DNA of 64,000 nucleotides from positions 32,001 to 96,000 of IMG/VR virus record IMGVR_UViG_3300037400_006004, one strand, 5' to 3'. The stretch's first letter is position 1, and each line of letters begins with the position of its first letter. Shown here in pieces: positions 46-38,372 of this stretch. The translations under genes were made by a program, and so were the position numbers. This DNA comes from a virus (Duplodnaviria; Caudoviricetes). Under the pieces are notes generated by a model, which saw nothing but the letters and a program-made list of their open reading frames with translations, was not told the DNA's origin and did no database searches.

Positions 46-438
46 TTAATGATTTTTCATTTTTTCTCTAGCTAGATAAGTTCTTCCCATTCTACCTAAT
101 TTTCTAAAATCTTTATCTGAGTTTATATCATATTCATGTGTTGTTTCATTATTTCCATTTTTAATTCTCAATTTCTTTTCTTTACGATTATATTCTATTT
201 TAGATTTTGGATCTAATTTATTAATATCTATGTTTCCTTTTCTAACTTCATTAGCTATTCCTATTGTTGAAGCCATATCTCTATCACGTTGTCTATCTTT
301 ATGTATTCCATAAAGTACACTTCCAGCTACACCTGCTGCTGATAATCCAGCTGCAATTTTAGCTCCTTTATTTTCATTAAGAATATCATATAAAGCATCA
401 TAGTAACCTTCCATAAAAATTTCATCATAAGTAGCCAT
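46..438 (-). CDS. Small late protein with FMEGY...LNE leader and Gly/Ala hydrophobic helix (putative head cargo)
   Basis: MATYDEIFMEGYYDALYDILNE then IAAGLSAAGVAGSVLYGI and a basic tail; SD GAAGGT; late promoter upstream. Confidence 0.6.
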   Translation of the reverse strand: MATYDEIFMEGYYDALYDILNENKGAKIAAGLSAAGVAGSVLYGIHKDRQRDRDMASTIGIANEVRKGNIDINKLDPKSKIEYNRKEKKLRIKNGNNETTHEYDINSDKDFRKLGRMGRTYLAREKMKNH

Positions 439-468
439 ATCAAATACCTTCTTTCATAAATAATTTAA

Positions 469-480
469 TAATTATTAGTT
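469..480 (-). promoter_or_regulatory. Late-type promoter AACT-N6-TA
   Basis: Reverse complement AACTaataatTA upstream of 46..438. Confidence 0.55.
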
Positions 481-492
481 TTTTTTTAAATA

Positions 493-504
493 AACTAATC
501 TTTA
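493..504 (+). promoter_or_regulatory. Late-type promoter AACT-N6-TA
   Basis: AACTaatcttTA upstream of 531. Confidence 0.55.
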
Positions 505-530
505 TAAATCTTAAAAAAGAAGGTGTTATT

Positions 531-1268
531 ATGCTTAAATTTTTAGAGCAAGATGGAGAATCTATTAGATTTACAGGCGATATTCTTAACGTATATTTAC
601 CTAAGAATTATTTTGAATCTGGTGTTGCTTCATATAATGGTAATGAAGTAAATACTATTGCATATTTCTTTTTTGAAGTAAAAACTTTTGCAATGGAAGA
701 AAAAGATGAAATGGGTCATATATATACTTTTAAACTTCCTGCTAGAATAGTATTTGAATTTGATGATAAGAATTCAAAAACTATGAATATTAAAGATACT
801 GGTGATATTCAGTATGATATTCTTACTATGAATAGAGGAAGTATTTTTGTAAAAAATATTAACGTAGAAAAATCAGCTGCAAACGCTAAAGACTTTTTAT
901 ATATGTTACATAAAGGACGTTTTCCTTCTTTAATTCCATATGATGAAATTATTAAAATTTATATGCAAAATATTGATCTTAATGGAATGGATTTAGGTTG
1001 TCAAAATACTATTTATGAGATGATGATTGGTGAATTAATGAGAAATAAGAAAAATGTTAAAGAACCTTTTAGAAAAACTGCAAATAAAGCTAATGTATCT
1101 CCTCTTGACTATAAAAATATTAATATGAAGAATATTGCATTCTTTAGTAGTTCTTACTCAGCAATTGGCTTTGAAGATATGAATAAGGCATTAATTAGTT
1201 CTACGGCTAAAGCGCTTAATAATGAAAAAGAAATTACTTCTCCTGTTGAGAAAGTTCTTAAATATTAA
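531..1268 (+). CDS. RNA polymerase beta'-like C-terminal fragment (probably virion RNAP)
   Basis: IYEMMIGELMR and SSSYSAIGFEDMNKAL resemble the beta' C-terminal motifs HIEVIVRQM and SFLSAASFQETTRVL; late promoter. Confidence 0.6.
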   Translation: MLKFLEQDGESIRFTGDILNVYLPKNYFESGVASYNGNEVNTIAYFFFEVKTFAMEEKDEMGHIYTFKLPARIVFEFDDKNSKTMNIKDTGDIQYDILTMNRGSIFVKNINVEKSAANAKDFLYMLHKGRFPSLIPYDEIIKIYMQNIDLNGMDLGCQNTIYEMMIGELMRNKKNVKEPFRKTANKANVSPLDYKNINMKNIAFFSSSYSAIGFEDMNKALISSTAKALNNEKEITSPVEKVLKY

Positions 1269-1276
1269 AAAAAAAT

Positions 1277-1305
1277 AACCCTTATGGATTTTTTCCATAA
1301 GGGTT
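1277..1305. terminator. Intrinsic terminator
   Basis: aacccttatgga/tccataagggtt plus T tract. Confidence 0.8.
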
Positions 1306-1307
1306 TT

Positions 1308-1321
1308 TATATTTATATTAT
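1308..1321 (+). promoter_or_regulatory. Early-type promoter motif
   Basis: TATATTTATATTAT, close to the recurrent TAAATATATATTAT motif. Confidence 0.4.
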
Positions 1322-1370
1322 TTATTTGAAATAATAAATTTTAATATTTTAAAAAGTGAGGTATGTAAAT

Positions 1371-2747
1371 ATGATTAAAATTAGTTGTCATGAAGATATC
1401 ATTAATTATTGTCAAGAAAATAATATAGGTGTTGAAACATTTAATGAACCAGTAGAAATCGTTATAAAAAATACTACTAATTTATCAGAATTATTTTCTA
1501 ATTGTAAACTTTTTAATCAGCCTGTAATCATTCCTGAAGGTACAACAAATACATCATTTATGTTTGTAGGATGTATATCGTTCAATCAGCCTGTAACTAT
1601 TCCTGATACCGTACAATATACTAACAATATGTTTGATACGTGTATTAAATTTAATCAACCAATAATATTACCAGCAGAATTAAAAGAAGCTATCGAAATG
1701 TTTCTAGACTGTTATACATTTAATAGTCCTGTTTCTTTTGAAAAAATTAAAAGTTATCAACATAGAAAAATGTTAACTTTAGATTCTATGTTCGAAAACT
1801 GTCATAAATTTAATCAACCAGTTAATATTCCATATGCTAATTCTTGTGAAGGAATGTTTCAAAATTGTTACAACTTTAATAGTAAAATAAATTTTGTAGA
1901 ATATGATAAATGGTATGATATTTACACAAAAGAAGAAGATCCTCTTACTTTAACAAGATTTCTTTTTAATTGTTATTCTTTTAATCAAAAGATTGAATTT
2001 CCCAATCAATTTACTAGATATGTAACAAAAGCATTTGAAAATTGTTATTCATTTAACCAAGAAGTAGTTTTTGATGGATGGACTAAACATTTAGAACATG
2101 CTTTCCGTAATTGTACCGAATTTAATTCTAATATTACACTACCAAAAAACAAACGAGATATCTGCGTTAATGGATTACTAGAAGGATGTATTAGTTTTAA
2201 TTCTTCTATTATAACAGATATAATTCCTTACAGTATTGAAGGAATGTTTAAAAATTGTAAAAATTTAACACATTTAAGCTTAGATATAAAAGGAATTTTA
2301 GATAATTACAATATTAAAGAAATTTTTAAAAATTGTGATAAACTCAGATTCGATGAACCTTTAAATATATTTGACAATATAAAAGATATTAAACATAGAT
2401 ATGAATATTATGAAGATGCTTTTGCAGGAACAAATATTGATTTAAAAAGTAAAATAGAAAATTTTAAAAATGTTACTACATTAATGAAGTTTTTTGCTTT
2501 TGTAAGTAAATATGATTTTGATCGATTTAAAGAAAGAGTAAAAGTTAAAATAAATGATACAAATATTACGGTTAGTTTAAAATCATTCTTATCAACTAGA
2601 TTTACACATAAAAATGATTATACTTATATGTATAATGATTATACAGAAACAATTACAGTATTATATGATAATGAATATACTCGTAGAAATCCTATATCAG
2701 ATCATGCTATTGCTAAGATGCTTTTAGATAGCACACTTGAAAAATAA
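1371..2747 (+). CDS. BspA/DUF285-like leucine-rich repeat protein (degenerate repeats)
   Basis: Repeated MFxxCxxFNQPVxIP units; ATG at 1371 after GAGGT preferred over GTG at 1356. Confidence 0.8.
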   Translation: MIKISCHEDIINYCQENNIGVETFNEPVEIVIKNTTNLSELFSNCKLFNQPVIIPEGTTNTSFMFVGCISFNQPVTIPDTVQYTNNMFDTCIKFNQPIILPAELKEAIEMFLDCYTFNSPVSFEKIKSYQHRKMLTLDSMFENCHKFNQPVNIPYANSCEGMFQNCYNFNSKINFVEYDKWYDIYTKEEDPLTLTRFLFNCYSFNQKIEFPNQFTRYVTKAFENCYSFNQEVVFDGWTKHLEHAFRNCTEFNSNITLPKNKRDICVNGLLEGCISFNSSIITDIIPYSIEGMFKNCKNLTHLSLDIKGILDNYNIKEIFKNCDKLRFDEPLNIFDNIKDIKHRYEYYEDAFAGTNIDLKSKIENFKNVTTLMKFFAFVSKYDFDRFKERVKVKINDTNITVSLKSFLSTRFTHKNDYTYMYNDYTETITVLYDNEYTRRNPISDHAIAKMLLDSTLEK

Positions 2748-2749
2748 AA

Positions 2750-2782
2750 ATATTTCTTAAGGAAATTTTCCTTAAGAAATAT
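2750..2782. terminator. Hairpin (CTTAAG family)
   Basis: atatttcttaaggaaa/tttccttaagaaatat between the two LRR genes. Confidence 0.6.
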
Positions 2783-2830
2783 ATATACAAATATAAAATA
2801 TAATATTTTAAGTCTAAAGGAGAAAATATT

Positions 2831-4072
2831 ATGAATAAATATATCATTATTAATGGAGAAAAATACAATAATATAGGTGATTATTGTGCAAAACAAGGTA
2901 TATCACTGGAATGTTTTAATCAACCAGTTATTATTCCTGAAGGAGTAAAAGATTGTTCGAGTATGTTTCAATGGTGTGAATCATTTAATCAGCCAGTTAT
3001 TATTCCAAAAGGTGTTAAAGATTGTTCGAGTATGTTTAGTGATTGTACATCTTTTAATCAGCCAATAATTATTCCAGAAAGTGTTGAAGATTGTTCGAGT
3101 ATGTTTGCTGGTTGCAAATCTTTTAATCAACCAATAATTATTCCTGAAGGAATGGATAATTGTAACTTTATATTCTATAATTGTACATCTTTTAATCAAC
3201 CAGTTACTATTCCAGAAGGTGTTGAAAGTTGTTTATATATGTTTGCTGGTTGCAAATCTTTTAATCAACCAGTTACTATTCCAGAAGGTGTTGAAAGTTG
3301 TTTATATATGTTTGCTGGTTGCAAATCTTTTAATCAACCAGTTACTATTCCAGAAGGTGTTGAAGATTGTTCGTATATGTTCTATAATTGCAAATCTTTT
3401 AATCAACCAGTTACTATTCCAGAAGGTGTTGAAGATTGTTCGTATATGTTCTATAATTGTACATCTTTTAATCAACCAGTTACTATTCCAGAAGGTGTTG
3501 AAAGTTGTTTGTATATGTTCTATAATTGCAAATCTTTTAATCAACCAGTTACTATTCCAGAAGGTGTTGAAGATTGTTCGTATATGTTCTATAATTGCAA
3601 ATCTTTTAATCAGCCAATAATTATTCCAAAAAGTGTTAATGGATATCTTAGAATGTTTACAGAATGTTGTAATTTTACAGAAAGTGTAGTTTTAATTATA
3701 GGAAAAAAGAAAGATATATACATATTTGATAATCAAAGATACCTGATAAATGGAAAAGAATATAGTAATGAAGACCTTCCATATATTAAATTTAAATCTA
3801 CTGATAAAATAAAAATTGATGTTAAATGTAATAAAATTATAGTTGAAAATGAAATTGATGCATTTAGATTTAAAACTGCAACTTTTACAAATAGTGATAT
3901 TATTACTTTCAAAATAAATGGAAATATTTATCGTAAAACACAATTAAAGAATTTTAGAATAAATAAAAATGATAAATTTGAATATGATAAAAAGACTAAA
4001 ACATTAACCTTTTTTAATGAAATAGATGAAGCTAGAATAGCTAAAAGTATGATTAATAGAGCATTATCTTAA
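2831..4072 (+). CDS. BspA/DUF285-like leucine-rich repeat protein
   Basis: 11 x 23-aa FNQPVTIPEGVEDCSYMFYNCKS-type repeats; C-terminal region resembles that of 1371..2747. Confidence 0.85.
   Translation: MNKYIIINGEKYNNIGDYCAKQGISLECFNQPVIIPEGVKDCSSMFQWCESFNQPVIIPKGVKDCSSMFSDCTSFNQPIIIPESVEDCSSMFAGCKSFNQPIIIPEGMDNCNFIFYNCTSFNQPVTIPEGVESCLYMFAGCKSFNQPVTIPEGVESCLYMFAGCKSFNQPVTIPEGVEDCSYMFYNCKSFNQPVTIPEGVEDCSYMFYNCTSFNQPVTIPEGVESCLYMFYNCKSFNQPVTIPEGVEDCSYMFYNCKSFNQPIIIPKSVNGYLRMFTECCNFTESVVLIIGKKKDIYIFDNQRYLINGKEYSNEDLPYIKFKSTDKIKIDVKCNKIIVENEIDAFRFKTATFTNSDIITFKINGNIYRKTQLKNFRINKNDKFEYDKKTKTLTFFNEIDEARIAKSMINRALS
2915..3673 (+). repeat. 69-bp coding tandem repeat, 11 units
   Basis: Near-identical tttaatcaaccagttactattccagaaggtgttgaa... 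units with 69-nt period. Confidence 0.95.
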
Positions 4073-4084
4073 GCTATAACGAAT

Positions 4085-4124
4085 AAAAATAACTCATAGA
4101 ATACATATTCTATGAGTTATTTTT
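4085..4124. terminator. Bidirectional terminator
   Basis: aaaaataactcatagaat/attctatgagttattttt between convergent genes. Confidence 0.8.
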
Positions 4125-4126
4125 TT

Positions 4127-4516
4127 TTATAGCATATTTTCTTTTTTCATTCTAGCAGCTCTAACAGCATTTATATTAGCTATAGATTTTTCATGTTCAG
4201 CTTGAGCTTTTCTACGTTTATTCTTAGATTCTTTTTCTTCAACTTCTGCTTTCTGTTTTCTTTCTTCCATTTTAAGTCTCTTCCAAGTTTTAAAGTTTGG
4301 ATACATTTTAGGATTTCTTCTATGATCCAGCTCGTATTTTCTCATTTCTTTATCTTCAAAGTTATCAATACTAAGTTGTCCACCTGCTTGCTGATATGCA
4401 AGATATCTCATTTTCTTTTTTCTATCTTCTTTCTCTCTTTCTTTATCAGCTGCTTTAAATTCTTTTTTAGCTTTAATACTTTGAATTATACTTTCAACTA
4501 AATATGTGTTTTTCAT
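4127..4516 (-). CDS. Basic hypothetical protein with short YLVE leader
   Basis: ORF with SD GAGGTGG, ATGA overlap with the upstream gene. Confidence 0.65.
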   Translation of the reverse strand: MKNTYLVESIIQSIKAKKEFKAADKEREKEDRKKKMRYLAYQQAGGQLSIDNFEDKEMRKYELDHRRNPKMYPNFKTWKRLKMEERKQKAEVEEKESKNKRRKAQAEHEKSIANINAVRAARMKKENML

Positions 4517-5199
4517 ATTTCCACCACCTCATATCTATTATTATCTTCATCATAAGCAAATTCTTCTTCTTCAACAGTATCAAATCTTACAATTTTAATA
4601 ACAGATGTATCAAAACCACTATCTTCAATAATATTATAGTCTTCATCTATTACATAAAGTTCTTTATCTTTTGTACATACAATAGTATATTCATCTGGTA
4701 AGACTTGTTTCTTTTTAGTTTCTTGCTTTTTGGTTTCTTCACCTTCAGATAATCTAGCTTCAAGAATTTTATCAATTTCAGCATCAGATGGTTGTTCTAC
4801 TGGAATATTCTCTTCATCTTCAATAGCACTCTGTTTAAGAATACTTTTATCATTTTTATTAAGTAACTTATAAATTTCAAGAACTTCTTGGCTAACACCA
4901 GATGCTTGTTCTTCAAGTTTATTATTAGCAGTAAACATTTTAGTTTCAATTTCCATCTTAGCTTTTTTAATATTAGTTAATTCTTTAATAATATTTAATT
5001 TTTTCTCTTTAATTGAAATTAAATTAGCTGTTTGTGAAGCCATAAAAACAGGGTTAGCTCTAGTTGGTGTCTTACTTACAGCATCTAATCTAGTCTTAGC
5101 TTCTCCAAAAAGAACATCTAAAGAAGATAATTCATCTTTAAGCATTTGATATTCTTCATCAAGTTCTTCTGGTGTAAGAACTAACTTATTTCCAGCCAT
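4513..5199 (-). CDS. Hypothetical coiled-coil/acidic protein
   Basis: ORF, SD AGGAG, late promoter at 5227..5238. Confidence 0.7.
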   Translation of the reverse strand: MAGNKLVLTPEELDEEYQMLKDELSSLDVLFGEAKTRLDAVSKTPTRANPVFMASQTANLISIKEKKLNIIKELTNIKKAKMEIETKMFTANNKLEEQASGVSQEVLEIYKLLNKNDKSILKQSAIEDEENIPVEQPSDAEIDKILEARLSEGEETKKQETKKKQVLPDEYTIVCTKDKELYVIDEDYNIIEDSGFDTSVIKIVRFDTVEEEEFAYDEDNNRYEVVEI

Positions 5200-5257
5200 T
5201 TGTATCACTCCTTTATTAAATAATAATAATCTATAGTTTTTATAATAATGAAAAAAA

Positions 5258-5288
5258 AAAGACTACCTCAAGTTATGAGGTAGTCTTT
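5258..5288 (-). terminator. Intrinsic terminator
   Basis: aaagactacctca/tgaggtagtcttt with A10 tract on + (U tract on -). Confidence 0.8.
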
Positions 5289-5291
5289 AAT

Positions 5292-5846: not shown

Positions 5847-5848
5847 AA

Positions 5849-6366: not shown

Positions 6367-8028
6367 TTAAAATGTTCCTTTACAAATAAACTGATTTGAA
6401 GTTACAAGAATACCAATAATACTAATTACTGCCTTAAGAATTTCTGTTTCTGTCTTAAGAGAATTAATAATATCAGTATTTTTATCATTCTCAAAATTCT
6501 TTGTTTTTAAGTTATATATACATCTTTCATCTACACATTTATTAATTATTTCATTTGCTTGTTCTTCTGTTTTTCCTGCATTTAAAAGTACATACTTATA
6601 ACAATCTTTAAAAGAATTACTTACAAGATTAGTAAGAGTATTTAAAAGTTCATAATTAGAAGAAGCTCTATCATAAACAGTATGCTTAATGGTCTTTGGA
6701 ATTGTAAGATTACCACCAGATACATATCCAGTTTCTAATGCTGCCTTACAAGCAAAAATACTGTCTTCAATAAGATACTTACGATTATTCTTTTCAAGTT
6801 CAGTATCTCCACCAACATAATACTTTACAATAGAAGAATTAAGATTACCTCGTCTAGTTTCAAGTTTAAAAATTCTATCTTCAAATGTATCATCATGAAG
6901 TTCTTTAAACTTATTAATCTCTTCAGTAATATGATCTACTCTATCTTTAAGTTCCTGATCGGAACATCTTCTACCAATAACTTTAGTTGTCTTATTAGTG
7001 ATTGCAATTTCATCACAAGAACCTAGCATTTTATAAAAATTCTTTTTAAAGTCTTCTTCTTTATCAAAAGTCTTATCATAAATAGTACTCTTAGTAAATA
7101 ATGCAATATCCTTAAAAATTTCTTCCTGATTCTTATTAGCGAAATTAAAATCTACTAAACAAATCTGAAGATTAGGATTCTGCTTCTTATTAATAATCCA
7201 ACAAGAAACAAACTCTACAGAAAAACTTCTAGCAATAATAACTACAGGCTTAGTCTGCTGAGATACAAGATTACCAATTACATCTACAATATAATTAAGA
7301 TCAGTAGAATCAAGTCTATCATTACACATAAAAATAAAAGGTTCTTTAACTTTAAACTCAGGCTTATTTCTATTATTGGAAAAATCTTCTGCAATCATAC
7401 CAGTTGCAAATTCAAGACCATTAAGATACTCATATGTATCATTATTATCTTTAGAATTCTCTAAATAAATAAAGCCTTCTCTACCAATCTTTTTATAAAT
7501 ATCATAAATATTCTTACCAACAATTGGATCATTATTATTAGAAACTTCTGCAATCTTTCTAATTACATCAAAATTCTCTTCAGTAATAGGAGTTGCAAAT
7601 TCTTTAATATCTTGATTAATATATTCTTCAATCTGTTTTAAACCATCAAAAATTTCCTTTGGAGCATAGTCTTTTAATTCAGTAGCAAGAGCATTGTTAA
7701 TATTATTAAATAAACTTTCTGCAATAACTACTGAAGAAGTACTACCATCACCAACTGTTTGTACTAAATTAAAGGAAATTTTCTTAATAATTTCATAAAT
7801 AGTTCTAGCTACAGGACTTTCAAATCTAAGTGATGACAAAATAGTATAACCGTCCTTTGTAGCAACATGTCCATTAATCTTATCTTCAATAATAGTCGAA
7901 GATCCATAATATCCTAAAGACTTTCTTAAACTATCTGCAATAATTTTTAAAGTCTTTTCAGATAATTTCTTATAATCTTCTTCACAAACTATATTTGAAG
8001 CTTCGCTATTAATAAGTGTGTTATCCAT
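6367..8028 (-). CDS. groEL: Phage GroEL-like chaperonin
   Basis: SLGYYGS, TKDGYTI, VGDGSTSS, IEDSIFACKAA, GYVSGG motifs; 553 aa; no GGM tail. Confidence 0.92.
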   Translation of the reverse strand: MDNTLINSEASNIVCEEDYKKLSEKTLKIIADSLRKSLGYYGSSTIIEDKINGHVATKDGYTILSSLRFESPVARTIYEIIKKISFNLVQTVGDGSTSSVVIAESLFNNINNALATELKDYAPKEIFDGLKQIEEYINQDIKEFATPITEENFDVIRKIAEVSNNNDPIVGKNIYDIYKKIGREGFIYLENSKDNNDTYEYLNGLEFATGMIAEDFSNNRNKPEFKVKEPFIFMCNDRLDSTDLNYIVDVIGNLVSQQTKPVVIIARSFSVEFVSCWIINKKQNPNLQICLVDFNFANKNQEEIFKDIALFTKSTIYDKTFDKEEDFKKNFYKMLGSCDEIAITNKTTKVIGRRCSDQELKDRVDHITEEINKFKELHDDTFEDRIFKLETRRGNLNSSIVKYYVGGDTELEKNNRKYLIEDSIFACKAALETGYVSGGNLTIPKTIKHTVYDRASSNYELLNTLTNLVSNSFKDCYKYVLLNAGKTEEQANEIINKCVDERCIYNLKTKNFENDKNTDIINSLKTETEILKAVISIIGILVTSNQFICKGTF

Positions 8029-28772: not shown

Positions 28773-28897
28773 AAATATTTCTCCTTTAATTAAAATTTTT
28801 AGTGTATGAAAATTCATACACTAAAATAATATATATTTATTTTATTCATTGGAAAACAAAGCCTTATTAATATAATAAAATAAAAGGAGTGAGAATA

Positions 28898-29605
28898 ATG
28901 CTTACTGCAACAAGAATAATTCAAAGATTAGAAAAAAAGCTTGGATACAAATTCATGGATTTAGAAATATCACATGAAGAAATTATTGAAAATATCAAAG
29001 ATGAAACATTAAGAACTTTTTCTAAATATTTTCCTTATCAAGAAACATGTGTTATAGATCCAGAAAACAGGGTAGAACCTTATGAAAATAGATTCTATAT
29101 TAAAACTCAAAATGAATGTGTTGGAATAAATAGGCTTATTGGTGGAAGCTTATTAGGTGCTAATTATATTACTGGTTTACTTCATCCTGTAGCGGCAGAT
29201 ATGTTGTTAGGTGATCCAATTTCAAGACAATTAAATATTGATTTGATGTCTTTTACTTCAAATCCTATTACCTTTAAATATGTAGAACCAGGTATGATTG
29301 AAATCTATCCAGTTTATAATAATGTAAGAAGTTATCTTATTGTGGCAAATACTGTTCATCCAGATCATTTTGGAACTATTCCAGTTAATCTTGAAGATGA
29401 ATTTATGAAATATGCTTTAGCAGATACACAATCTACATTATATATGATGAGAAATAGATTTCAAAATATTCAAACACCTTATGGTAACATTGAAATGTTC
29501 ATAGACCAATTACAAGGTGCTGAAGATAAAAAGGAACAGATTGAAGAAAGATGGAGAAATAATTCTCATAAGAATTCTACTAGAAAAAAAATTTTTGTAG
29601 GATAA
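28898..29605 (+). CDS. Probable neck/head-tail adaptor (T4 gp13-like)
   Basis: RLEKKLGYKFMDLEIS...FMKYALAD...IQTPYGNIEM; late promoter 28855..28866. Confidence 0.55.
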   Translation: MLTATRIIQRLEKKLGYKFMDLEISHEEIIENIKDETLRTFSKYFPYQETCVIDPENRVEPYENRFYIKTQNECVGINRLIGGSLLGANYITGLLHPVAADMLLGDPISRQLNIDLMSFTSNPITFKYVEPGMIEIYPVYNNVRSYLIVANTVHPDHFGTIPVNLEDEFMKYALADTQSTLYMMRNRFQNIQTPYGNIEMFIDQLQGAEDKKEQIEERWRNNSHKNSTRKKIFVG

Positions 29606-29616: not shown

Positions 29617-29832
29617 ATGATTAGTAAGGAAGAATATTTAAGAAAAATTAAAAATTCCAAATATTATAAATATGCTGATGATAAAGAAGAAATACTAGCT
29701 GATGCTGAAAGAATATGGGAAAGACGTTATGAAAAAAATAAACAACATAATAAATTTGAAAGAAAATTAAAATCACCGATAACATATGTAAAATTACATA
29801 AAGCTAAAAATTTAGATGATTTAGATATTTAA
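29617..29832 (+). CDS. Small basic protein, paralog of the N-terminus of 30531..31211
   Basis: MISKEEYLRKIKNS...ILADA versus MISREEYLKRVKES...ILADA. Confidence 0.7.
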   Translation: MISKEEYLRKIKNSKYYKYADDKEEILADAERIWERRYEKNKQHNKFERKLKSPITYVKLHKAKNLDDLDI

Positions 29833-29856
29833 TAATTTTAGAAAGGAATGATTTTT

Positions 29857-30516
29857 ATGAATTATAGAGATTTTTTAGTAGATAATTTAGAAAATGAAGG
29901 ATTTTTAAATGAAGGAAAAGGTGACAGTAGAAGAAATAGACGAAAAGGACATAAGAACAAAAATAATAAACCTAATCCCACTCCTAAACCTACTCCTAAA
30001 CCTACTCCTACTCCAAAACCTACTCCTAAACCAAATCCTAAACCTACTCCTACTCCTACTCCAAAACCTACTCCTAAACCAAATCCTAATCCTAATCCTA
30101 AACCTAATCCCACTCCAAAACCTAATCCAAAACCAAATCCTAATCCAAATAAAACCAAAATAGAAAATGTAACTAAATCTAGTAAAGATGAAGATAAAAA
30201 GGGATTTAAAAAATGGAGTGAATTTTCAGATGAAGATAAACAAAAATTAAAGAAAGATGCAAAAGTAGCAGGAGCTATTCTTGGAGGAACTGCTTTAGCT
30301 AGTGTTGGAATTAATCATATTATAAAGAGACAGAATAAAGAATATGATGATGATGAAGCATTAACTAAAGAAGAAAAGAAAGAATTAAAAGAAGCATATG
30401 AATATTTATTTGAAAATTTCTCTGAAGTAGATGTTTCTATTTTAGAAATGTTAGATGAATATGATTTTATGGTATTAGATGAAATTTCAGAAGGTTATAA
30501 CAGATTTGAAGATTAA
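29857..30516 (+). CDS. Pro-rich (PK/PT/PN) protein with FLNE leader and hydrophobic helix
   Basis: About 60-aa (Pro-X)n tract, [16 protein letters not shown], acidic C-terminus. Confidence 0.7.
29968..30150 (+). repeat. Low-complexity Pro-X coding repeat
   Basis: cctact/cctaaa/cctaat hexamer reiterations. Confidence 0.9.
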
Positions 30517-30530: not shown

Positions 30531-31211
30531 ATGATTAGTAGAGAAGAATATTTAAAACGAGTTAAAGAATCTCCTAGATATCAAAGAACACTTAATAAAC
30601 TTGAAAGAAAAAAAATATTAGCAGATGCTAATAAAAAATATGATAGACGAATTGCTAGGATACAAAGAGAAGCTGAATTTGAAAAAGAATTAGAAAAAAT
30701 GAATGAAGCTTTTATGGAAGGTTATTTAGATGGTTTAAGTAAATCCCAAGAACTCGATGAAGATCTTTTAGCTAGTATTGGTAGAAGATATGGAAAAGCT
30801 GGAGCTGTTGCAGATAAAGCTGTAGACTCGGTAAAATCTAAATTACCAAAAATCAAAAAATTGGAGATACTCAAACAACGCCAAAAGAAAAAGCCAAAAA
30901 TTATAGATAGAGTTGTTGATAAAGCGGCTAAACCATTAACTAATTATCATACTAAAAAAGCAGTTAATTCATATACTAAACGTCATGGTCATGCTCCAGA
31001 TGATAAAGTTGTTGAAAGATTCAAAAAAGGACAAGTTGCTCCTGCTACTAGAGCTGGTTTAAAAGGATTTGCAAAAGTAGATGCTGCTGCTTCATTAATT
31101 CCTGGTCCAACTTCCGCTTTAGGTCATGCTCCCATAATTGGTTTAGGAGTTGCTGATGAAATTAAAAAGAATAGACAAATGAAAAAAGCTAGACAAAATT
31201 TAAAAAAATAA
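30531..31211 (+). CDS. Basic late protein with internal FMEGYLDG...LDE motif
   Basis: EAFMEGYLDGLSKSQELDE; C-terminal Gly/Ala segment. Confidence 0.65.
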   Translation: MISREEYLKRVKESPRYQRTLNKLERKKILADANKKYDRRIARIQREAEFEKELEKMNEAFMEGYLDGLSKSQELDEDLLASIGRRYGKAGAVADKAVDSVKSKLPKIKKLEILKQRQKKKPKIIDRVVDKAAKPLTNYHTKKAVNSYTKRHGHAPDDKVVERFKKGQVAPATRAGLKGFAKVDAAASLIPGPTSALGHAPIIGLGVADEIKKNRQMKKARQNLKK

Positions 31212-31261: not shown

Positions 31262-31915
31262 TCAATAATCATCAATCATTTGAGCACTATGTCTAAAATC
31301 ATCAGAACGTTGTCCAGCTGTAGCAGAAATAGCACCTGCAATACTAGATAAACCACCTGTAATGGGAGCAGCTAAAATACCAACTGTAGCTTTAGTTCCC
31401 ATATTCCTCTTACGTAGTCTATAGAATTTTGTAGCTTCTTTAACAAATGTATCTTTTTTAACTGGTTTTAAAGCACTTGATTTACAATATTTTACATATT
31501 TATTATATAGCTTTTCAATTTTTGATTTATCTTTTAATTTGGAAGAAGCAACACCATAAGAAATTAATCCGGCAGATAACCAGTCTCCAGCAGTTGTATG
31601 ATGCGCTAAATAATCTTGAGTTGAAGATCCTTCATTTAATTCTTGAATGGCATCATCATAACCTTCTAAAAAAGCTTCTTCTTTCATACCTAAAACTTTT
31701 TTACCAAATTCATAAGGATTTTCTTTTCCTCGTTCAATCTTCTTTTGATTTGCTTTAGACATTTTATCAATTTTTCTTTTATCTCTAATTTCACGAAATT
31801 TTTCTTTTTCAAGCATCATATCTGTGTCAAAATCAAACGTAGGTTTGTATTTCATTTTTTTTATTTCTAATAATGCATTCATATAACCTTCCATAAAAAT
31901 TTCTTCATAAGTCAT
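31262..31915 (-). CDS. Late protein with two F(M/L)EGY leaders and Gly/Ala hydrophobic helices
   Basis: MTYEEIFMEGYMNALLE and EAFLEGYDDAIQELNE; late promoter 31945..31956. Confidence 0.65.
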   Translation of the reverse strand: MTYEEIFMEGYMNALLEIKKMKYKPTFDFDTDMMLEKEKFREIRDKRKIDKMSKANQKKIERGKENPYEFGKKVLGMKEEAFLEGYDDAIQELNEGSSTQDYLAHHTTAGDWLSAGLISYGVASSKLKDKSKIEKLYNKYVKYCKSSALKPVKKDTFVKEATKFYRLRKRNMGTKATVGILAAPITGGLSSIAGAISATAGQRSDDFRHSAQMIDDY

Positions 31916-31962: not shown

Positions 31963-33129
31963 TTATCTTTCATTATAAGCTTTATTAATTAATAATACAA
32001 AATAAATATAGCATGCTTTTCTATAAATAACTTTAGTAGCATCTCTTTCAGTATTAGCATATCTATTACAGTATTTAGTTAAAAATTTATCTAAAGTATT
32101 TTTGATATTAAGACTAATATCATTTTTACTATTAGATTTACTATAAGCACTTATCATATAAGTAACGAATTTTTGAGAGCCAAACTCATTTGAATTATTA
32201 TTATCATTATAAATATATAATTGAACCATTGATAATAATAAAATTCTAATAGATTCTAATTCATTATCTTTAATATTTTCAAGAGCTAATTTCATTACAC
32301 TTTGTTCAGCTTTACAAATACCACAAGCAGTTCTAAGAATAACTGGATCAATTCTAGTAGTATTAAATTTATTATAAGCTTTATTAACGATATTAACTAA
32401 ATCAGCTGACATATTAGAAGTTTCGTAATAATTTTCTTCATCATTAGAATCTTGCTGAAGTTTAAGATATTTTTTATTATTAAAATCAGTCATATATTCA
32501 TTAACAAATGATTTCATTTGGTTATTAAGTCTTGTACGAATAGCAAGAAGATAACTTAAAATATCCATATCATTTTTAGAATCTAAAGATTTCTTTTGTG
32601 TTTCATGAGCATTAATAACAGTTGCAAATAACGCTTTAAAAACAGATTGATACTTTCTAAAGTAATATTTGTCTGAAACTCTATTAAAAGTAAATTGCAT
32701 ACAATCTTCATTTGGTAAAAATTTTTGGAAATATTTAGCATGAAGTGCAGCATACTGATATAGAGTAAGATACATTAAAGCTGCTTGTAAACCTACTTTA
32801 TTATTAGTTAAATGATAATAACGAACAAGATTAACCATTAAGAAGTTTAAAGGAAAGTTAACTTGATTGATAACACCATAACATTCTTTAGTCTTTTTAA
32901 TTTTACCTACAACAGTATCAATTTCATCTACAGAAATTTTAAATAAATCAAATGGATATTTTATATCATTTGGTGTAAAAAATAATCTTTTACTTGGTAT
33001 ATTATGAAAAAGTACTTCAGAATTTTTATCCATATACTTTTGTACATAACTTTCAAATTGCTTTGTAATAGCAGGACTTTCATTTGTCTTTAACATTGGA
33101 AAAATTTCATCATGAAAAAATGTAGACAT
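31963..33129 (-). CDS. Helical late protein (candidate virion-RNAP-associated factor)
   Basis: YAALHAKYF...NEDCMQFTFNRVSDKYYFRKY...RTRLNNQMKSF; own late promoter 33155..33166; function uncertain. Confidence 0.4.
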   Translation of the reverse strand: MSTFFHDEIFPMLKTNESPAITKQFESYVQKYMDKNSEVLFHNIPSKRLFFTPNDIKYPFDLFKISVDEIDTVVGKIKKTKECYGVINQVNFPLNFLMVNLVRYYHLTNNKVGLQAALMYLTLYQYAALHAKYFQKFLPNEDCMQFTFNRVSDKYYFRKYQSVFKALFATVINAHETQKKSLDSKNDMDILSYLLAIRTRLNNQMKSFVNEYMTDFNNKKYLKLQQDSNDEENYYETSNMSADLVNIVNKAYNKFNTTRIDPVILRTACGICKAEQSVMKLALENIKDNELESIRILLLSMVQLYIYNDNNNSNEFGSQKFVTYMISAYSKSNSKNDISLNIKNTLDKFLTKYCNRYANTERDATKVIYRKACYIYFVLLINKAYNER

Positions 33130-33208
33130 AATCTCACCTCTTTAATAAATAATATAAAGAATAGTTCTACTAAAAAAAAATGGGAAGGAATTACCCTTCC
33201 CATTTAGT

Positions 33209-33535
33209 TTACTCAAAACCCCAGAACTTTCTCATCTGAGACTGAGTTTCGCATATTTCCAGTTCTACATCATTTTGACATAAGAACCTTACAATACTTC
33301 CCAAGAAGAATAAATCATAATCTTCATAGGAAAACTCAGTATAACGAAATTCTTCGTTATACTGAGTTTTATATGTATTACTTGGACCGCCCCATCCACA
33401 AGCACTTTTCAAGAATGCTTTTACAATAGCATTATCACCATTGTAAAAGACTGAATATCCATGACTTGAGCAGTCAAAGCATTTTCCTTCAGGCTGCCGT
33501 CCAGCGGTCAGATCTACTATGAGTCTTTCTTTCAT
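33209..33535 (-). CDS. Hypothetical early protein
   Basis: SD AAGGAGG, ATGA coupling; terminator 33178..33205. Confidence 0.7.
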   Translation of the reverse strand: MKERLIVDLTAGRQPEGKCFDCSSHGYSVFYNGDNAIVKAFLKSACGWGGPSNTYKTQYNEEFRYTEFSYEDYDLFFLGSIVRFLCQNDVELEICETQSQMRKFWGFE

Positions 33536-33966
33536 ATAATTTCCTCCTTAATAATTTTATCATGAACTTCAATCTGCTCAATCATTAGACAGAAATAATG
33601 ATGTATATAACTATAGGTATTTCCATTTATAGATGTTCTAGGGCATATATCGACAATAGCTTTTTTATATTTATCATTTTCTCTTAAAGGATAAAATTTA
33701 GCTTTTGATAAATCTGTAACATCTCTAGTAGTTCCATCTTTATGACATTTAGTTTTAATTTTAGTTAATTTTTTAATTTGTTTTAATAATATATCTTCAG
33801 ATGAAAAATATAATTCAAAATGATTTTTTGTTTCATCAAAAATATCAATTGGTGAACAAGGTAAGCTCATCAATGTTTCAAGATTATCACATGAAGGCTT
33901 TATTTTATTATTATAAAGTTCTTCATAATAATACTCCGTTACTTTAAGTTTAAATATAGTAGACAT
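33532..33966 (-). CDS. Hypothetical early protein
   Basis: SD GGAGGG. Confidence 0.7.
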   Translation of the reverse strand: MSTIFKLKVTEYYYEELYNNKIKPSCDNLETLMSLPCSPIDIFDETKNHFELYFSSEDILLKQIKKLTKIKTKCHKDGTTRDVTDLSKAKFYPLRENDKYKKAIVDICPRTSINGNTYSYIHHYFCLMIEQIEVHDKIIKEEII

Positions 33967-33979
33967 TATTAACCCTCCA

Positions 33980-34450
33980 TTAATCTCTACTTTCTATTAC
34001 AAAGTATTTAGCTTTATAACTTTTTGCAAGCTTTCTTACTTCTGAAGTTTCTTCTTTAGTTTTACAAAAGATACTATAAAGATACACATTATCTTTAGAG
34101 GTAGGAACTTTAAGATAAGGAAGCTCTTTATCATTCATAATCTTATCAAATTCTTTATCATCAAAATTAGATGTAAGTTCAATCTTCCAAAGTTTATCTT
34201 TCCTTGACTTAACTTCAATAACTTTAACTACATATACACCGATAAGATTACAAATAGCAACGATAGCTGCTTTCTTCCAAATAGGAAGATCACATGTCAT
34301 ATAAATAAGGACTACTGTATACAACCCATAAGCCACTGCATTGACTAATGCAGCAGTAATAGGACTACCTTTTAATGTAATAATAGACTTACCAGTCTGA
34401 ATAATTACATTAAATACATTAAGTACTATAAAGATTGTTAATACACTCAT
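33980..34450 (-). CDS. DUF5698/UPF0316-like membrane protein
   Basis: Three TM helices (IQTGKSIITLKG...AALVNAVAYGLY...CNLIGVYV) plus small C-terminal domain. Confidence 0.6.
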   Translation of the reverse strand: MSVLTIFIVLNVFNVIIQTGKSIITLKGSPITAALVNAVAYGLYTVVLIYMTCDLPIWKKAAIVAICNLIGVYVVKVIEVKSRKDKLWKIELTSNFDDKEFDKIMNDKELPYLKVPTSKDNVYLYSIFCKTKEETSEVRKLAKSYKAKYFVIESRD

Positions 34451-34498
34451 TTATCTTACCTCCTCAATATTTTTATTATTTTTTTCTACATCACTCAT
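34451..34498 (-). CDS. 15-aa leader ORF
   Basis: MSDVEKNNKNIEEVR with SD GGAGGT; stop abuts the next ATG; early motif 34541..34554. Confidence 0.4.
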   Translation of the reverse strand: MSDVEKNNKNIEEVR

Positions 34499-34597
34499 AA
34501 ATATACCTCCATAATAAAAATATAGATTTTTACCATTAAAATAATATATACTTAAAAACCTATTATTATATATAATAAAAAGAAAGGAGTAACTTTT

Positions 34598-36586
34598 ATG
34601 ATTTATGATTATAATACAAAGAATATAAGTTTCATAAAAATGGCTAAGCAATTAAAAGATAAAGGTGTTAAGAATTGGAATTTTATGTTAACTTTATATG
34701 ATCCAAAGTTACAAGGAGTAGATCCTTATGACCCAGATCTTTCTATAGAAATGCAAGCAAGAATACAAAAAGAAGTAATGATTAATTATTGGTACTATAT
34801 TCGAGAAGTTATTCGTATTAATTCTACTGGTGGAGCTGTTTCATATGAACTTCATCTTGGAAATATGGCAATGCATTATATGCAATTAAAAAATATAGAT
34901 GTTATTTTATGTTTACCCCGTCAGCACTTTAAAACTTGGAGTTCTGTTGTATGGTATTCATGGATTTATTTATATCAAGCAAAGAATTATACTATTATAT
35001 TTAGTAATAAACAGTTACAAGACTCACAAGAAAACTTAAAGCGTATTATGGATGTTATTGAAGTTTTACCATCATATTTAAAGAGTCATATGAATCCTAA
35101 ATATGATACCGATAATATTAACATGCTTAGAATAGCTGAGAATAATAATACAATTAAAGCATTATCTTCTCCTAAAGATGAAAAGTCTGCCGATAAATTA
35201 GGACGTGGTCTTAACATTCCTATCTTATGGTGTGATGAGTTTGCATTCTTAAACATGAATCAAGTTATGTATATGTCTGCAAGACCTGCATTAACTAAAG
35301 CATCTGAAGCAGCTAAAAATGCTCATCAGCCTTACGGTATCACTATAACTACTACTCCAAATAACCTTGATGTTCCAGAAGGAAAATTCTGTTATGATAT
35401 GATTCAAAAAGCAGCTAAATTTACTTTTGCTTTTTATGATTGGACTGATGATCAATTATGTGATTATCTAGATAAAAATTCTGGTAATAACTATGTATTC
35501 ATTGAATATCATCATACTGATCTTGGTAAAGATGATAAATGGTTAAAAGCTCAAATTAGAGCACTTGAAGGAGATATGGCTAAAGTTAAAAGAGAAATTC
35601 TTATTGAATGGACTTATGCTTCTAATATGTCTATCTTTACAGAAGAGCAGTTAGATGACATGTCTAAATATGTAAAACATGAAAATCTTCAAACTATTTA
35701 TATAGACAATTATAAAATTGATGTATTAGAACCATTTAACAATCTTATGTATAAAAACTGGTGTCTTTCTATAGATATCGGTGGAGGACTTGGTAGAGAC
35801 TATTCAGCTTTTTCTCTTATAGACCCAGTGTCTCTTAAACAAGTTATGAAATTTAAGAATAATAATATCTCAGTATTAGACTTTGCTAATTTAGTAATTA
35901 AATTTGTAAAGACTTATGTACCTAATGCAGTTATTATTCCAGAGCGTAACTTTAACTCTGCTTTTATAGAATACATTCAAAAATCAGATTTTGCTAAAAA
36001 TCTTTACTATACTTCAACTGAAGATAAAGATTATACACAAAAGAAAATTAAAAAGACTTCTATATTTAAAGCAGGAAAAACAACTAGTGTTGAAACTCGT
36101 AGATATGGTTTCCAAACAGATAAAGATACAAGAAAGTATATGACTGAAGAAATATTATTTATGATTGCTAATCAAAGACCAGAATTAATAAATAATGATG
36201 AACTTTTTGATGAAATAAGAAAGCTTATTAGAGAAAAATCGGGTAAGATTAATCATATGAATGGAGAACATGATGACTTAACTATGAGTTACTTAATTGG
36301 TTTATATGTATTAACAAATACTACTAATAGAAATAAATTCTTTAAGAATATTTCAGATACTCCAATTACTGCAGATAAGCCAAAAGAAATTAATAAGCAA
36401 GAACAACAATTTAAGAGAATTGCTAAATATAACGATCAAGAGGTTATGAATAATATTATAAATAGTAATTTAGATAGAGAACTACTTGAAATGCAAAGAC
36501 TTATAGATGAAAAAAATAGTAAAATTGAAACTGATAGTAAAAAGAGGCATATGAAAAATATATTTAGTATGAATGGAAGTTTATAA
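34598..36586 (+). CDS. terL: Terminase large subunit
   Basis: PRQHFKT (Walker A), WCDEFAF (Walker B), TTTP coupling motif, SIDIGGG..DYS and HDDL nuclease motifs. Confidence 0.92.
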   Translation: MIYDYNTKNISFIKMAKQLKDKGVKNWNFMLTLYDPKLQGVDPYDPDLSIEMQARIQKEVMINYWYYIREVIRINSTGGAVSYELHLGNMAMHYMQLKNIDVILCLPRQHFKTWSSVVWYSWIYLYQAKNYTIIFSNKQLQDSQENLKRIMDVIEVLPSYLKSHMNPKYDTDNINMLRIAENNNTIKALSSPKDEKSADKLGRGLNIPILWCDEFAFLNMNQVMYMSARPALTKASEAAKNAHQPYGITITTTPNNLDVPEGKFCYDMIQKAAKFTFAFYDWTDDQLCDYLDKNSGNNYVFIEYHHTDLGKDDKWLKAQIRALEGDMAKVKREILIEWTYASNMSIFTEEQLDDMSKYVKHENLQTIYIDNYKIDVLEPFNNLMYKNWCLSIDIGGGLGRDYSAFSLIDPVSLKQVMKFKNNNISVLDFANLVIKFVKTYVPNAVIIPERNFNSAFIEYIQKSDFAKNLYYTSTEDKDYTQKKIKKTSIFKAGKTTSVETRRYGFQTDKDTRKYMTEEILFMIANQRPELINNDELFDEIRKLIREKSGKINHMNGEHDDLTMSYLIGLYVLTNTTNRNKFFKNISDTPITADKPKEINKQEQQFKRIAKYNDQEVMNNIINSNLDRELLEMQRLIDEKNSKIETDSKKRHMKNIFSMNGSL

Positions 36587-36625
36587 AATAACAATTATTA
36601 AATTATATGGAAAGGTGGTTTTATA

Positions 36626-37519
36626 ATGTCATATTTAAAAAATTTTTTAGAAGGTTATATGGATGGTATTAGTGAATTAGATGAATCAGTTCATACAAAA
36701 GTTGCAAAAAAGACTAAAAAATATATAATTCAACAAGTTGAAGATGATGATAGCCATTTATCAAAAGGCGGAGATATACAAACATATGATATTGGAGATA
36801 AAATAAAAGATAGTGACCATACTTGGAGAGGAACTACTCATCCGATTAGTGTTGAACATGATGCTAAAGATAAAAAAAGATATACTACTACGTATCAAGT
36901 TCCAGATAAATTAAAAGAATCACACATAAATATAGGAAAACGAGATTTAAAAAGTAAAGGTATAGCTCAAGCAACAGTAGGACACGAAGTAGGACATGGT
37001 AGATTTGCTTCTAAGTTTGCAAAATCAGTATCTTCTGGAAGTGCAGATCCCATATTAGCAAGTGTAGCAGCCAAAAGAGAATATGAACGACAAAAAAATG
37101 GAAAAGTTCATAATCATGCAAATACTATTGAAGTACAGAGATCTTCTAACTTCAGTGAATATTATGCAGATCAAAATGCAAGAGAAGCTTTAAGACGAGC
37201 TGATCCAAAACATTCAGATATTAAAATGAGAAGATATTTTAAACATGTTAGCAAATTAGATAAATCTGAAAGAAAATTACCAAATGCAAAAGCAATAAAA
37301 GCAAGTAGAGCTTTAGATTCAGTAGATAGAAAACAAGCTATGAGAGAAGTTGCTAAATTACGTGCAGAAGCAGTAATGAAAAAGAAAGATCCTAGACAAA
37401 TGATCAAATACAAACAAGGAATGGCTGGCGGTAAAAAAGCTTATGAAAAAGAAGTTAAAAAACGTAAATTACAAAAGAAATTAAGAGAAGAGTTATTAAA
37501 TTATTATTTAGAAAATTAA
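36626..37519 (+). CDS. FLEGY-leader protein with zincin-like HExxH motif
   Basis: MSYLKNFLEGYMDGISELDE; GHEVGH...EYYAD. Confidence 0.6.
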   Translation: MSYLKNFLEGYMDGISELDESVHTKVAKKTKKYIIQQVEDDDSHLSKGGDIQTYDIGDKIKDSDHTWRGTTHPISVEHDAKDKKRYTTTYQVPDKLKESHINIGKRDLKSKGIAQATVGHEVGHGRFASKFAKSVSSGSADPILASVAAKREYERQKNGKVHNHANTIEVQRSSNFSEYYADQNAREALRRADPKHSDIKMRRYFKHVSKLDKSERKLPNAKAIKASRALDSVDRKQAMREVAKLRAEAVMKKKDPRQMIKYKQGMAGGKKAYEKEVKKRKLQKKLREELLNYYLEN

Positions 37520-37528
37520 TTTTATTAA

Positions 37529-37564
37529 AAAAAGACTATAGGGAATATTCCCTATAGTCTTTTT
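37529..37564. terminator. Bidirectional terminator
   Basis: aaaaagactatagggaa/ttccctatagtcttttt. Confidence 0.85.
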
Positions 37565-37778
37565 AAAAATCAGCAAAATATTTTAAATAAGGGTAATAAA
37601 AACTTTCCTTATTTATTGTTTTTAATATTTCTTTTTGTTTATTTATTCTTATTTCAGTTACTCCACATCTTTCATTAATAGTATAAAATAATTTTCCATT
37701 AATTATTTCATCAGCTTCTTTTAAAAGTTTTTCATCTTTTTTATTATTTTTATAGCATTTTAATAATTCATAAAACAT
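37563..37778 (-). CDS. Small early protein
   Basis: SD AAGGAGGT; early motif 37815..37828. Confidence 0.65.
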   Translation of the reverse strand: MFYELLKCYKNNKKDEKLLKEADEIINGKLFYTINERCGVTEIRINKQKEILKTINKESFYYPYLKYFADF

Positions 37779-37827
37779 AAACTTACACCTCCTTATTATT
37801 TATATTTCATATAAATAATATATATTT

Positions 37828-37856
37828 AACCCTTAAGGATTAAATCCTTAAGGGTT
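37828..37856. terminator. Terminator (CCTTAAGG family)
   Basis: aacccttaaggat/atccttaagggtt. Confidence 0.8.
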
Positions 37857-37862
37857 TTTTTA

Positions 37863-38372
37863 TTAATATTTAGAAGTTCTTTTTACATTTATACTATTTC
37901 CAACTTTAACTTCATGACTTATTTCTTTTGGTCCATTTTCTAAGTTATTTTTCTTTCTAACTTTTTTATCAGCTGCATCTATTACAGTAGTACCAGCTTT
38001 AACTGCTGTAATACCAGCGAGTGTAATACCAGCTTTACCTAAAGTCTTTTTTAAATCATGTGCAGTTTCTTGTCTTTCACACCATCTTTTAAAAGGTAAA
38101 AAATCTTTTCCTTGTTTTTTACGTTTTTTTACATATTCATCATATTTGAGTTTAAGTGCATCACTATCTAATCTTTTATCCTTTTTAAAAAGACCTTCGC
38201 ATAATTCAGTATAATATTGATCTAAATTATCAAAATCTTCATTTAATTCATTATAAACAGCTATTTCATCTAATTCATAAGCTTTTTCCATTAATGTATC
38301 AAACCATTCATTAAATACAGCTGTTCCACCGTTCATTCTATAATCGACAAAACCTTTTTTAATTTTATTCAT
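37863..38372 (-). CDS. Protein with acidic LxE-rich leader and basic/Gly-Ala payload
   Basis: ELDE, ELNE, ELCE then KAGITLAGITAVKAG. Confidence 0.6.
   Translation of the reverse strand: MNKIKKGFVDYRMNGGTAVFNEWFDTLMEKAYELDEIAVYNELNEDFDNLDQYYTELCEGLFKKDKRLDSDALKLKYDEYVKKRKKQGKDFLPFKRWCERQETAHDLKKTLGKAGITLAGITAVKAGTTVIDAADKKVRKKNNLENGPKEISHEVKVGNSINVKRTSKY

Follow-up and report, generated by a model that had tools for sequence, protein, structure and literature searches.

In bacteriophage T4 the internal proteins IPI, IPII and IPIII, as well as Alt, carry a capsid-targeting sequence (CTS) that is removed by the prohead protease gp21 (Mullaney & Black 1996; reviewed in PMC9026906). Residues 4 and 7 of the CTS serve targeting and residues 8 and 10 direct processing, and Alt loses propeptides at both of its termini (PMC9026906). 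In phiKZ-like phages the propeptides of head proteins are cleaved after Glu by a gp21-type protease (PMC5694885, PMC10052503), and the paralogous ejection proteins of SPN3US retain identical N-termini (PMC5694885). Cleavage after Glu, in x-X-E motifs, holds for all gp21-type prohead proteases studied, T4-type and giant-phage alike (PMC5694885). Here we describe an acidic tag of 16 residues that recurs on otherwise unrelated proteins encoded in a stretch of 64,000 nucleotides (hereafter the window; positions 32,001 to 96,000 of IMG/VR record IMGVR_UViG_3300037400_006004). The closest known system is the T4 CTS with its hypervariable internal proteins. We tentatively favour the reading that the tag is a capsid-targeting signal that is removed by proteolysis; the broader claim, that it is a functional and portable docking tag, is one that we hold with considerable confidence.

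Distribution and anatomy of the tag

The pentapeptide F[LM]EGY occurs five times in the proteins of the window, against 0.03 occurrences expected from composition, and the five copies are divided over four proteins that have no detectable similarity to one another outside the motif. A six-frame translation holds 18 EGY tripeptides, six of them within F[LM]EGY, and one of these six is a chance match spanning a start codon. The sequence-only reading of this DNA had claimed a motif shared by four otherwise unrelated proteins, and all five canonical copies were recovered at the genes it named. A profile built from them matches the 106.6-kb contig, of which the window is a part, at those five places only (E 1e-10 to 1e-14), the next match having E 0.05. 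Comparison of the five copies at the DNA level was uninformative because of extreme codon bias.

The first copy (ATYDEIFMEGYYDALYDILNE; 373..435, residues 2-22, profile E 1.5e-13) opens a protein of 130 amino acids (aa) encoded at 46..438 on the minus strand, in which it is followed by a Gly/Ala hydrophobic helix (residues ~25-44) and a basic tail. A 217-aa protein (31262..31915, minus strand) bears two copies, one at residues 1-18 (31862..31915, E 2.4e-14) and one at residues 77-95 (31631..31687, E 2.1e-13), separated by a 56-aa basic helix and followed by a winged-helix-like module and a Gly/Ala helix. The tag is internal in a 226-aa protein (30531..31211, plus strand), where it (…NEAFMEGYLDGL…ELDE; 30693..30761, residues 55-77, E 2.4e-10) stands between a 54-residue N-terminal 'MISREEYL' module and a basic body; a 71-aa paralogue of that module is encoded by a separate small gene (29617..29832, plus strand). 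The fifth copy is N-terminal (36626-36685) in a 297-aa protein (36626..37519, plus strand) with an HEVGH sequence at 36983-36997, encoded directly after the terminase gene. Looser leaders had also been listed at 37863, 4127 and 29857, and none of them scores with the profile. The first is nevertheless a decayed copy (DFDNLDQYYTELCE at 38196-38237); its bearer (37863..38372, minus strand) is a family member of 169 aa in which a winged-helix-like module and a Gly/Ala helix are also present. The other two genes are untagged: 4127..4516 (minus strand) encodes a 129-aa protein that is the orthologue, at 55% identity, of the C-terminally tagged G2_177793, and 29848..30516 (plus strand) a 222-aa family member with an MNYRDFL N-terminus, a (K/N)P(T/N)P repeat, a Gly/Ala helix and an acidic YLFENFSE tail.

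Relatives of the source phage were located via the terminase and include two genomes rated complete, G1 (305,865 bp) and G2 (265,109 bp). The window profile matches 14 places in G1 and 20 in G2; after iteration of the profile the counts are 15 copies on 10 proteins in G1 and 21 copies on 16 proteins in G2, so that the tag is far commoner than the sequence-only reading had seen. A profile search of 1.84 billion representative proteins gave 57 clusters at E<=0.001, all of 39-371 aa, and the ten clusters that were checked derive from metagenomic assemblies only. The combined set comprises 138 tag copies in 79 non-redundant proteins, and the tag is conserved across genomes whose terminases are only ~80% identical. 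The profile has no match at E<=10 in the T4 genome or among PDB sequences, a literature search for the motif strings found none, and neither Pfam nor PHROGs holds a family for the tag or for most of the payloads. Among cultured phages, megablast and tblastn searches with the region and four family proteins against 50,697 phage records gave no homologue, and IMG/VR scans with two tagged proteins gave no match. An identity of the tag with DUF6761 was discounted, as the matches were weak (~15 bits against a cut-off of 27). The lack of matches in PDB, Pfam, PHROGs, the literature, T4 and the phages AR9 and BpSp (see below) thus marks the tag as a sharply defined invention of one clade, represented by uncultured phages on metagenomic contigs.

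Over the 138 copies the consensus is [Y/L]-[E/D]-[E/D]-[A/I]-[F/Y]-[L/M]-E-G-Y-Y-D-A-[L/I]-x-[E/D]-[I/M/L]. The Gly is invariant, and relative to it Tyr at +1 (136/138) and Ala at +4 (130/138) are nearly so; position +5 is L or I in 129 copies and position +7 is E in 100 and D in 20 more. The L/I-x-E ending, which had been described as part of the motif, is thereby integral to the tag. The pattern of residues predicts an amphipathic acidic helix. Acidic residues at -5, -1, +3 and +7 make an i+4 stripe, and the opposite face presents hydrophobic or aromatic residues at -7, -4/-3, +1, +5 and +8 and includes the small pair G0/A+4; as read from the sequence, these two faces mark a helix that lies tightly against a second helix or in a groove, with a basic surface beside it. 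The tag has a sharp preference for termini. It had been taken for an N-terminal leader, which holds for the 56 copies at the extreme N-terminus (core Gly at residues 6-15) but not for the 29 at the extreme C-terminus (core Gly 8-13 residues from the end), nor for the remaining 53, which are internal, as in 30531..31211, or tandem. About 24 copies are second copies 20-35 residues after an N-terminal one, with a spacer that is only rich in D, E and Y and holds no cargo, and many tagged proteins have one copy at each end.

Payloads, exchange of the tag and gene neighbourhood

Most tagged proteins are very basic, with a payload isoelectric point (pI) of 9-10, and the tag regions themselves are extremely acidic and often lengthened by runs of D, E and Y; some bearers are acidic or neutral (pI 4.3-5.7). 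A Gly/Ala-rich hydrophobic helix is found in half of the tagged proteins, with an odds ratio of 20-30 relative to other proteins. The Lys/Arg-rich sequence, the Gly/Ala helices and the HExxH payload (HEVGH) are present much as the sequence-only reading had it. The subfamily of 31262..31915 shares a module Y-x-x-Y-x-x-C…K-P-x-S/K-x-x-F, in which Pox_D5 (PF03288, a primase-type winged helix) is matched by P0014 at 27.8 bits (cut-off 21.4) and by other members at a sub-threshold 16-19 bits; 31262 itself reaches only 20.1 bits for RFX_DNA_binding (cut-off 27) and E 1.4e-4 for phrog_864, and sub-threshold Cdc6_C matches fall within the same module. Other recurrent payload bodies are a 'ITDVFQNFEDKYG' domain and an 'NPFPIIGG' domain. 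The HEVGH protein (36626..37519) has a single homologue, which is metagenomic, is 71% identical and keeps both the tag and the HExxH sequence; its payload has no Pfam match and no PDB sequence match, and its Atlas model, at a predicted local distance difference test score (pLDDT) of 0.49, has weak zincin-like neighbours (template modelling score 0.4-0.48 to M48, M78 and SprT-like models). One G1 protein contains a RibD_C reductase-type domain (Pfam E 1.5e-17), and here the tag sits on a separate N-terminal stretch outside the domain.

The tag is not a fixed property of a given protein lineage. The 4127..4516 protein and its G1 orthologue are untagged and the G2 orthologue has a C-terminal tag, while the decayed copy in 37863..38372 (…LDQYYTELCE…) corresponds to ALGGYYDALCE in G004 and to an N-terminal IFMEGYYDALCE in G2_138698. 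The orthologues of 31262, G1_238422 and P0039, have a single tag each. In P0039, which is ~89% identical to 31262 over the shared part, the first tag and the spacer of 60 residues are absent and the one tag is a hybrid of the two. This weakens the earlier proposal that the tandem copies make 31262 a two-cargo polyprotein, which is not supported. The differing tag state of orthologues and the P0039 hybrid thus indicate a mobile module that was repeatedly added, lost and recombined. That the tag is a portable module on swappable and unrelated payloads, as had been suggested from the window, is well supported by these sequence comparisons: there are 138 copies on 79 proteins, orthologues gain and lose the tag, and one copy is on an enzyme recognised by Pfam.

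The family is mosaic in further respects. Several members without an N-terminal EGYYDAL tag have a second N-terminal signature, M-N-Y-[R/K/H]-D-[F/L]-[L/I]-x-[E/D] (29857.. in the window, 196307-197311 and 236351-237364 in G1, 150876-151694 in G2), which is closer than the tag to the T4 CTS pattern Y-x-x-F-[I/L]-x-E; in a loose form it is matched by 19 of 642 proteins, about 15 of them family members. Several members (146721-147260, 150876-151694, 221969-222931 and 39225-39902 in G2; 239033-239626 in G1) have a further shuffled module, K-x-x-[ST]-[FY]-x-[EQ]-W-K-x-x-G-K-P, which comes after the Gly/Ala helix and lies at the C-terminus or close to it. Past the end of the window, at 105223-106617 (plus strand) of the contig, an open reading frame (ORF) that extends past 465 aa is cut off by the contig end. 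The modules repeated in it are those of the family (an acidic segment, a Lys-rich stretch, the Gly/Ala helix, YLFENFTE and the Y-x-x-Y-C module), with no canonical tag among them, and by its sequence it looks like a concatenated version of the small family proteins.

The tagged genes of the window adjoin genes for virion proteins and the terminase. The 46..438 gene is located between g123-like and g125-like (virion) genes, the latter at 531..1268 (plus strand), and has an AACT-N6-TA late-type motif upstream. The 30531..31211 gene closes a tight operon of genes starting at 28889, 29617, 29848 and 30531, in that order, behind an AACA-N6-TA motif; the operon opens with a homologue of the AR9 virion protein g112 (28889..29605, plus strand; phrog_18911 E 1.6e-72, 45% identity to AR9 g112). 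The large terminase subunit is encoded at 34598..36586 (plus strand). Both G1 (235025..) and G2 (58796..) encode a gp21-type prohead protease homologous to AR9 g114. In G1 a run of family genes directly follows the protease gene, the first of them, G1_236351, being in the usual position of a scaffold gene and having tag-like segments at both ends, and in G2 three C-tagged paralogues are near the protease. A late-type AAC[A/T]-N6-TA motif, to be compared with the AR9 late promoter consensus AACA-N6-T(A/G) (PMC7598289), lies upstream of 15 of 30 tagged genes and 29% of other genes (p 0.014), and the early motif upstream of 2 of 30 tagged genes and 18% of other genes. Since these promoter patterns are crude and the DNA is very AT-rich, the enrichment is supporting evidence only. 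The late and head-gene context that had been noted in the window therefore extends to virion, terminase and protease neighbours in the clade, with late motifs enriched and early motifs depleted.

The early motif, ATATATTAT, is the most enriched upstream 9-mer (84 genes in G0, G1 and G2) and matches the two annotated AR9 early promoters, and AAC[A/T]-N6-TA[T/A]A, then …TAGAAAGG, precedes many structural genes of the same three genomes; as sequence patterns, ATATATTAT and the late-type motifs fit an AR9-like programme with two polymerases. Beside the capsid gene G1 (291893-295222) and G2 (89922-93239) encode a 639-aa protein with an N-terminal Gly/Ala helix that is homologous to the AR9 'zincin protease' and to g204 of Yersinia phage phiR1-37, annotated as structural, so that a related giant phage with uracil DNA offers a case in which zincin-like proteins with such a helix bear a structural annotation.

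The contig (27% G+C, completeness estimate 41%) belongs to an uncultured giant phage related to the AR9/PBS1 group. Its large terminase shares 44-46% identity with the enzymes of Bacillus phages BpSp and AR9 and with those of Staphylococcus jumbo phages, and the contig encodes homologues of AR9 virion proteins g112, g125 and g127 together with a tail sheath, a split portal gene, a DNA polymerase and RNA-polymerase β-like subunits. The two portal pieces (phrog_3004/213 halves; 45957..49818, minus strand) are separated by a 313-aa ORF of which the contig holds further paralogues, an arrangement that probably reflects an intron with a homing endonuclease; in G1 and G2 the prohead protease gene is split as well. 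A phage-encoded GroEL-type chaperonin is found at 6367..8028 (minus strand; phrog_5725 E 1e-117), and two paralogous proteins of 31% mutual identity, made of ~22-residue C-x-S-F-N-Q-P-V-x-I-P-E-G-V repeats, at 1356..4072 (plus strand).

The head as a candidate destination

The data firmly support a portable peptide for docking or address that has a single partner in common. On the reading that we favour, the tag would dock its bearer on such a partner in the assembling prohead core, perhaps a scaffold-like protein or other tagged proteins, and fast-changing small basic proteins, some of them DNA-binding and some membrane-active, would in this way be built into the head along with a few enzymes. 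A T4 gp21-type prohead protease would then probably clip the tag at Glu sites flanking it or inside it, candidate cuts (arrows) being φ-x-E↓A before the core, [F/Y]-[L/M]-E↓G inside it and L-x-E↓ after it, whereupon the payload may stay with the DNA and possibly be ejected along with it. We infer the docking partner, the presence in virions, the cleavage and the ejection. Several observations make the head the most likely destination: the neighbours of the tagged genes and their timing, the head machinery of T4 type in this phage group, the φ-x-E sites that flank the tag, the CTS-like start of N-terminal copies, payloads that are basic, DNA-binding-like or provided with a hydrophobic helix as in BpSp gp196, and the precedents of T4 Alt, which is trimmed at both termini, and of the paralogous head-protein families of SPN3US.

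Several points weigh against a head address. A profile search did not find the tag in AR9 and BpSp, though their head genes are the same, so that a head of this type can do without the tag. What the tag has in common with the T4 CTS is a pattern and not homology, since the profile has no T4 match. The i+4 acidic stripe means that helical periodicity alone could explain the conserved Glu, with no need for cleavage, and for C-terminal copies a downstream L-x-E cut would leave the tag on the protein; only ~12 of these 29 copies (~40%) have a φ-x-E-[A/S] site just upstream. The RibD_C enzyme would be an odd head cargo. Neither the major capsid protein nor the prohead protease was found on the contig of the window, which is incomplete. 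AlphaFold2 models of 31262 (7-sequence alignment, pLDDT 48.5) and of P0016, which is tagged at both ends (pLDDT 44.1), are all-helical, and with such low scores they are too poor to show packing of tag on tag or of tag on payload.

The same properties can be accommodated by a docking or oligomerisation helix for a late non-virion complex in the infected cell, which would pack hetero- or homotypically via the small-xxx-small G0/A+4 face flanked by aromatic residues. As half of the tagged proteins have Gly/Ala hydrophobic helices, the membrane would be the most likely site of such an assembly, e.g., one for lysis, for exclusion or for tethering of DNA to the membrane. This would suit the strong co-occurrence of the tag with those helices, the winged-helix-like DNA-binding modules that adjoin them and the multivalent tandem and bracketing arrangements, and tags that are retained would account for C-terminal copies. 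The tagged genes however cluster with head genes and the prohead protease and not with lysis genes, and soluble payloads (the RibD_C protein, acidic proteins without a hydrophobic helix) are tagged too, which makes a complex of this kind somewhat unlikely. Anionic pro-regions are known to mask cationic peptides, and a tag without any address function could be an intramolecular pro-piece that, for as long as it is neither removed nor displaced, masks a cationic payload with membrane activity or DNA binding. The contrast between very basic payloads (pI 9-10) and extremely acidic tag regions would be expected from masking, as would a G-x-x-x-A face that could pack on the Gly/Ala helices, but we consider it quite improbable because the bearers of the tag include acidic or neutral proteins (pI 4.3-5.7) and a folded enzyme, its near-invariance over unrelated payloads argues for one common external partner, and AlphaFold2 gave no confident intramolecular packing.

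Two further explanations have less to recommend them. The tag might be a signal for the phage chaperonin (6367..8028) or for an AAA+ protease, i.e., for timed degradation. Degrons, like the tag, typically prefer either terminus, the phage has its own GroEL, and the N-terminus of T4 gp23 directs proteins to GroEL according to a report cited in PMC10052503; against this, a conserved amphipathic helix of 16 residues that is often in tandem is unlike known degrons, nothing ties the tag to GroEL, and AR9-like phages with GroEL-like genes lack the tag, so that the signal is very improbable. Finally, the resemblance of P0039 to a deletion between the two tags of 31262, and the high mosaicism of the family, could be taken to mean that the tag is a functionless recombination joint, a patch of homology for module shuffling. 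A mere joint would hardly keep an invariant Gly with a near-invariant Tyr and Ala, nor would it keep them across genomes with terminases ~80% identical, and the helical periodicity of the conserved residues together with the sharp terminus preference points to selection on the peptide; we give this explanation only the slightest chance.

Within the capsid-targeting reading it is tempting to speculate, with a good deal of doubt, that the bi-terminal and multivalent tags act as a 'zipper', in which tagged proteins bind one another or the scaffold-like G1_236351 and so form the prohead core. Such a self-assembling and protease-dissolvable core, of a composition readable from sequence, would in effect provide a viral capsid with an encapsulation-peptide system of a general kind, a prospect that we regard as equally doubtful. 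A related candidate, a capsid-protein propeptide carrying the same tag, found no support: 'NILGEGFSDVLSE' and 'KLVEGLDATEE' of AR9 and 'HLCEGFEATE' of G1 and G2 are alike by eye but unscored by the profile. The capsid maturation site is likely ILTE↓S in G1 and G2 and ILQE↓S in AR9, a site that we infer only, because the capsid proteins of these phages cannot be aligned to T4 gp23. Import into a phage nucleus was likewise discarded as a destination, as a pseudo-nucleus is not encoded by uracil-DNA phages of the AR9 type (PMC7598289) and terminal signals play no part in the import of chimalliviruses (PMC12908238).

If the tag does load the head, one could list from sequence which proteins a whole uncultured AR9-like clade packages and possibly injects, ~10-16 of them per genome with DNA-binding, membrane-active and enzyme payloads. 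We know of no scaffold protein that has been identified for the interior of giant-phage heads, and capsid targeting by the tag would bear on how these crowded interiors are assembled. In that case the tag could also become a second, orthogonal means of filling phage heads with foreign proteins. Should the tag dock elsewhere, it would still be a new and sharply defined peptide-recognition module.

Comparison with known systems

Large paralogous or mosaic families of head proteins with conserved N-termini on diverged bodies are also found in phiKZ-like phages (SPN3US gp53/gp54 and paralogue family B; the phiKZ inner-body proteins). Their propeptides differ from the tag in that they are typically longer than 100 residues, exclusively N-terminal and cut at A/S/G-x-E, and the tagged proteins have no sequence, PHROG or Pfam relation to the phiKZ and SPN3US families and no tblastn match in the 50,697 phage records. 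Closer in phylogeny are AR9 g115 and BpSp gp196, which belong to the same phage group. They have been detected in virions (AR9 annotation; PMC4870245), gp196 giving one of two prominent gel bands (PMC4870245), and are encoded between the protease and the capsid gene, a protease-adjacent position that is also that of G1_236351. An acidic N-terminus followed by a hydrophobic helix, as seen in gp196, and then a basic helix is the layout of 46..438 and its relatives as well, although g115 and gp196 have no EGYYDAL tag and no detectable sequence similarity to the tagged proteins. Encapsulation peptides of microcompartments and cargo-loading peptides of encapsulins are short amphipathic helices that sit at either terminus of unrelated cargo behind a variable linker. 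The tag resembles them in function by analogy only, as their shell is of another type and the peptides are not removed by a protease.

The T4 CTS shares more features with the tag than these do. In both cases a short, conserved, acidic peptide with a φ-x-E motif at its end is carried by unrelated, mostly basic and fast-evolving small late proteins, in a genome type with gp21-, gp23- and gp20-like head genes, and the first half of N-terminal tag copies (M-x-Y-E-E-φ-F-x-E) shares Y-x-x-φ-φ-x-E with the MKTYQEFIAE of T4 IPII and IPIII. The tag differs in its length of 16 residues, in a G-Y-Y-D-A core that is absent from T4, in its occurrence at the C-terminus, internally, in tandem and at both ends, in being carried by 10-16 proteins per genome and known here from sequence alone, and in its lineage, an AR9-like one that has two multisubunit RNA polymerases and probably infects low-GC hosts. 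If the capsid-targeting reading is correct, T4-style targeting would thus exist outside the T4 group, and what would be new relative to the T4 CTS is another sequence in a longer, multivalent and either-terminus form in the AR9-like lineage.

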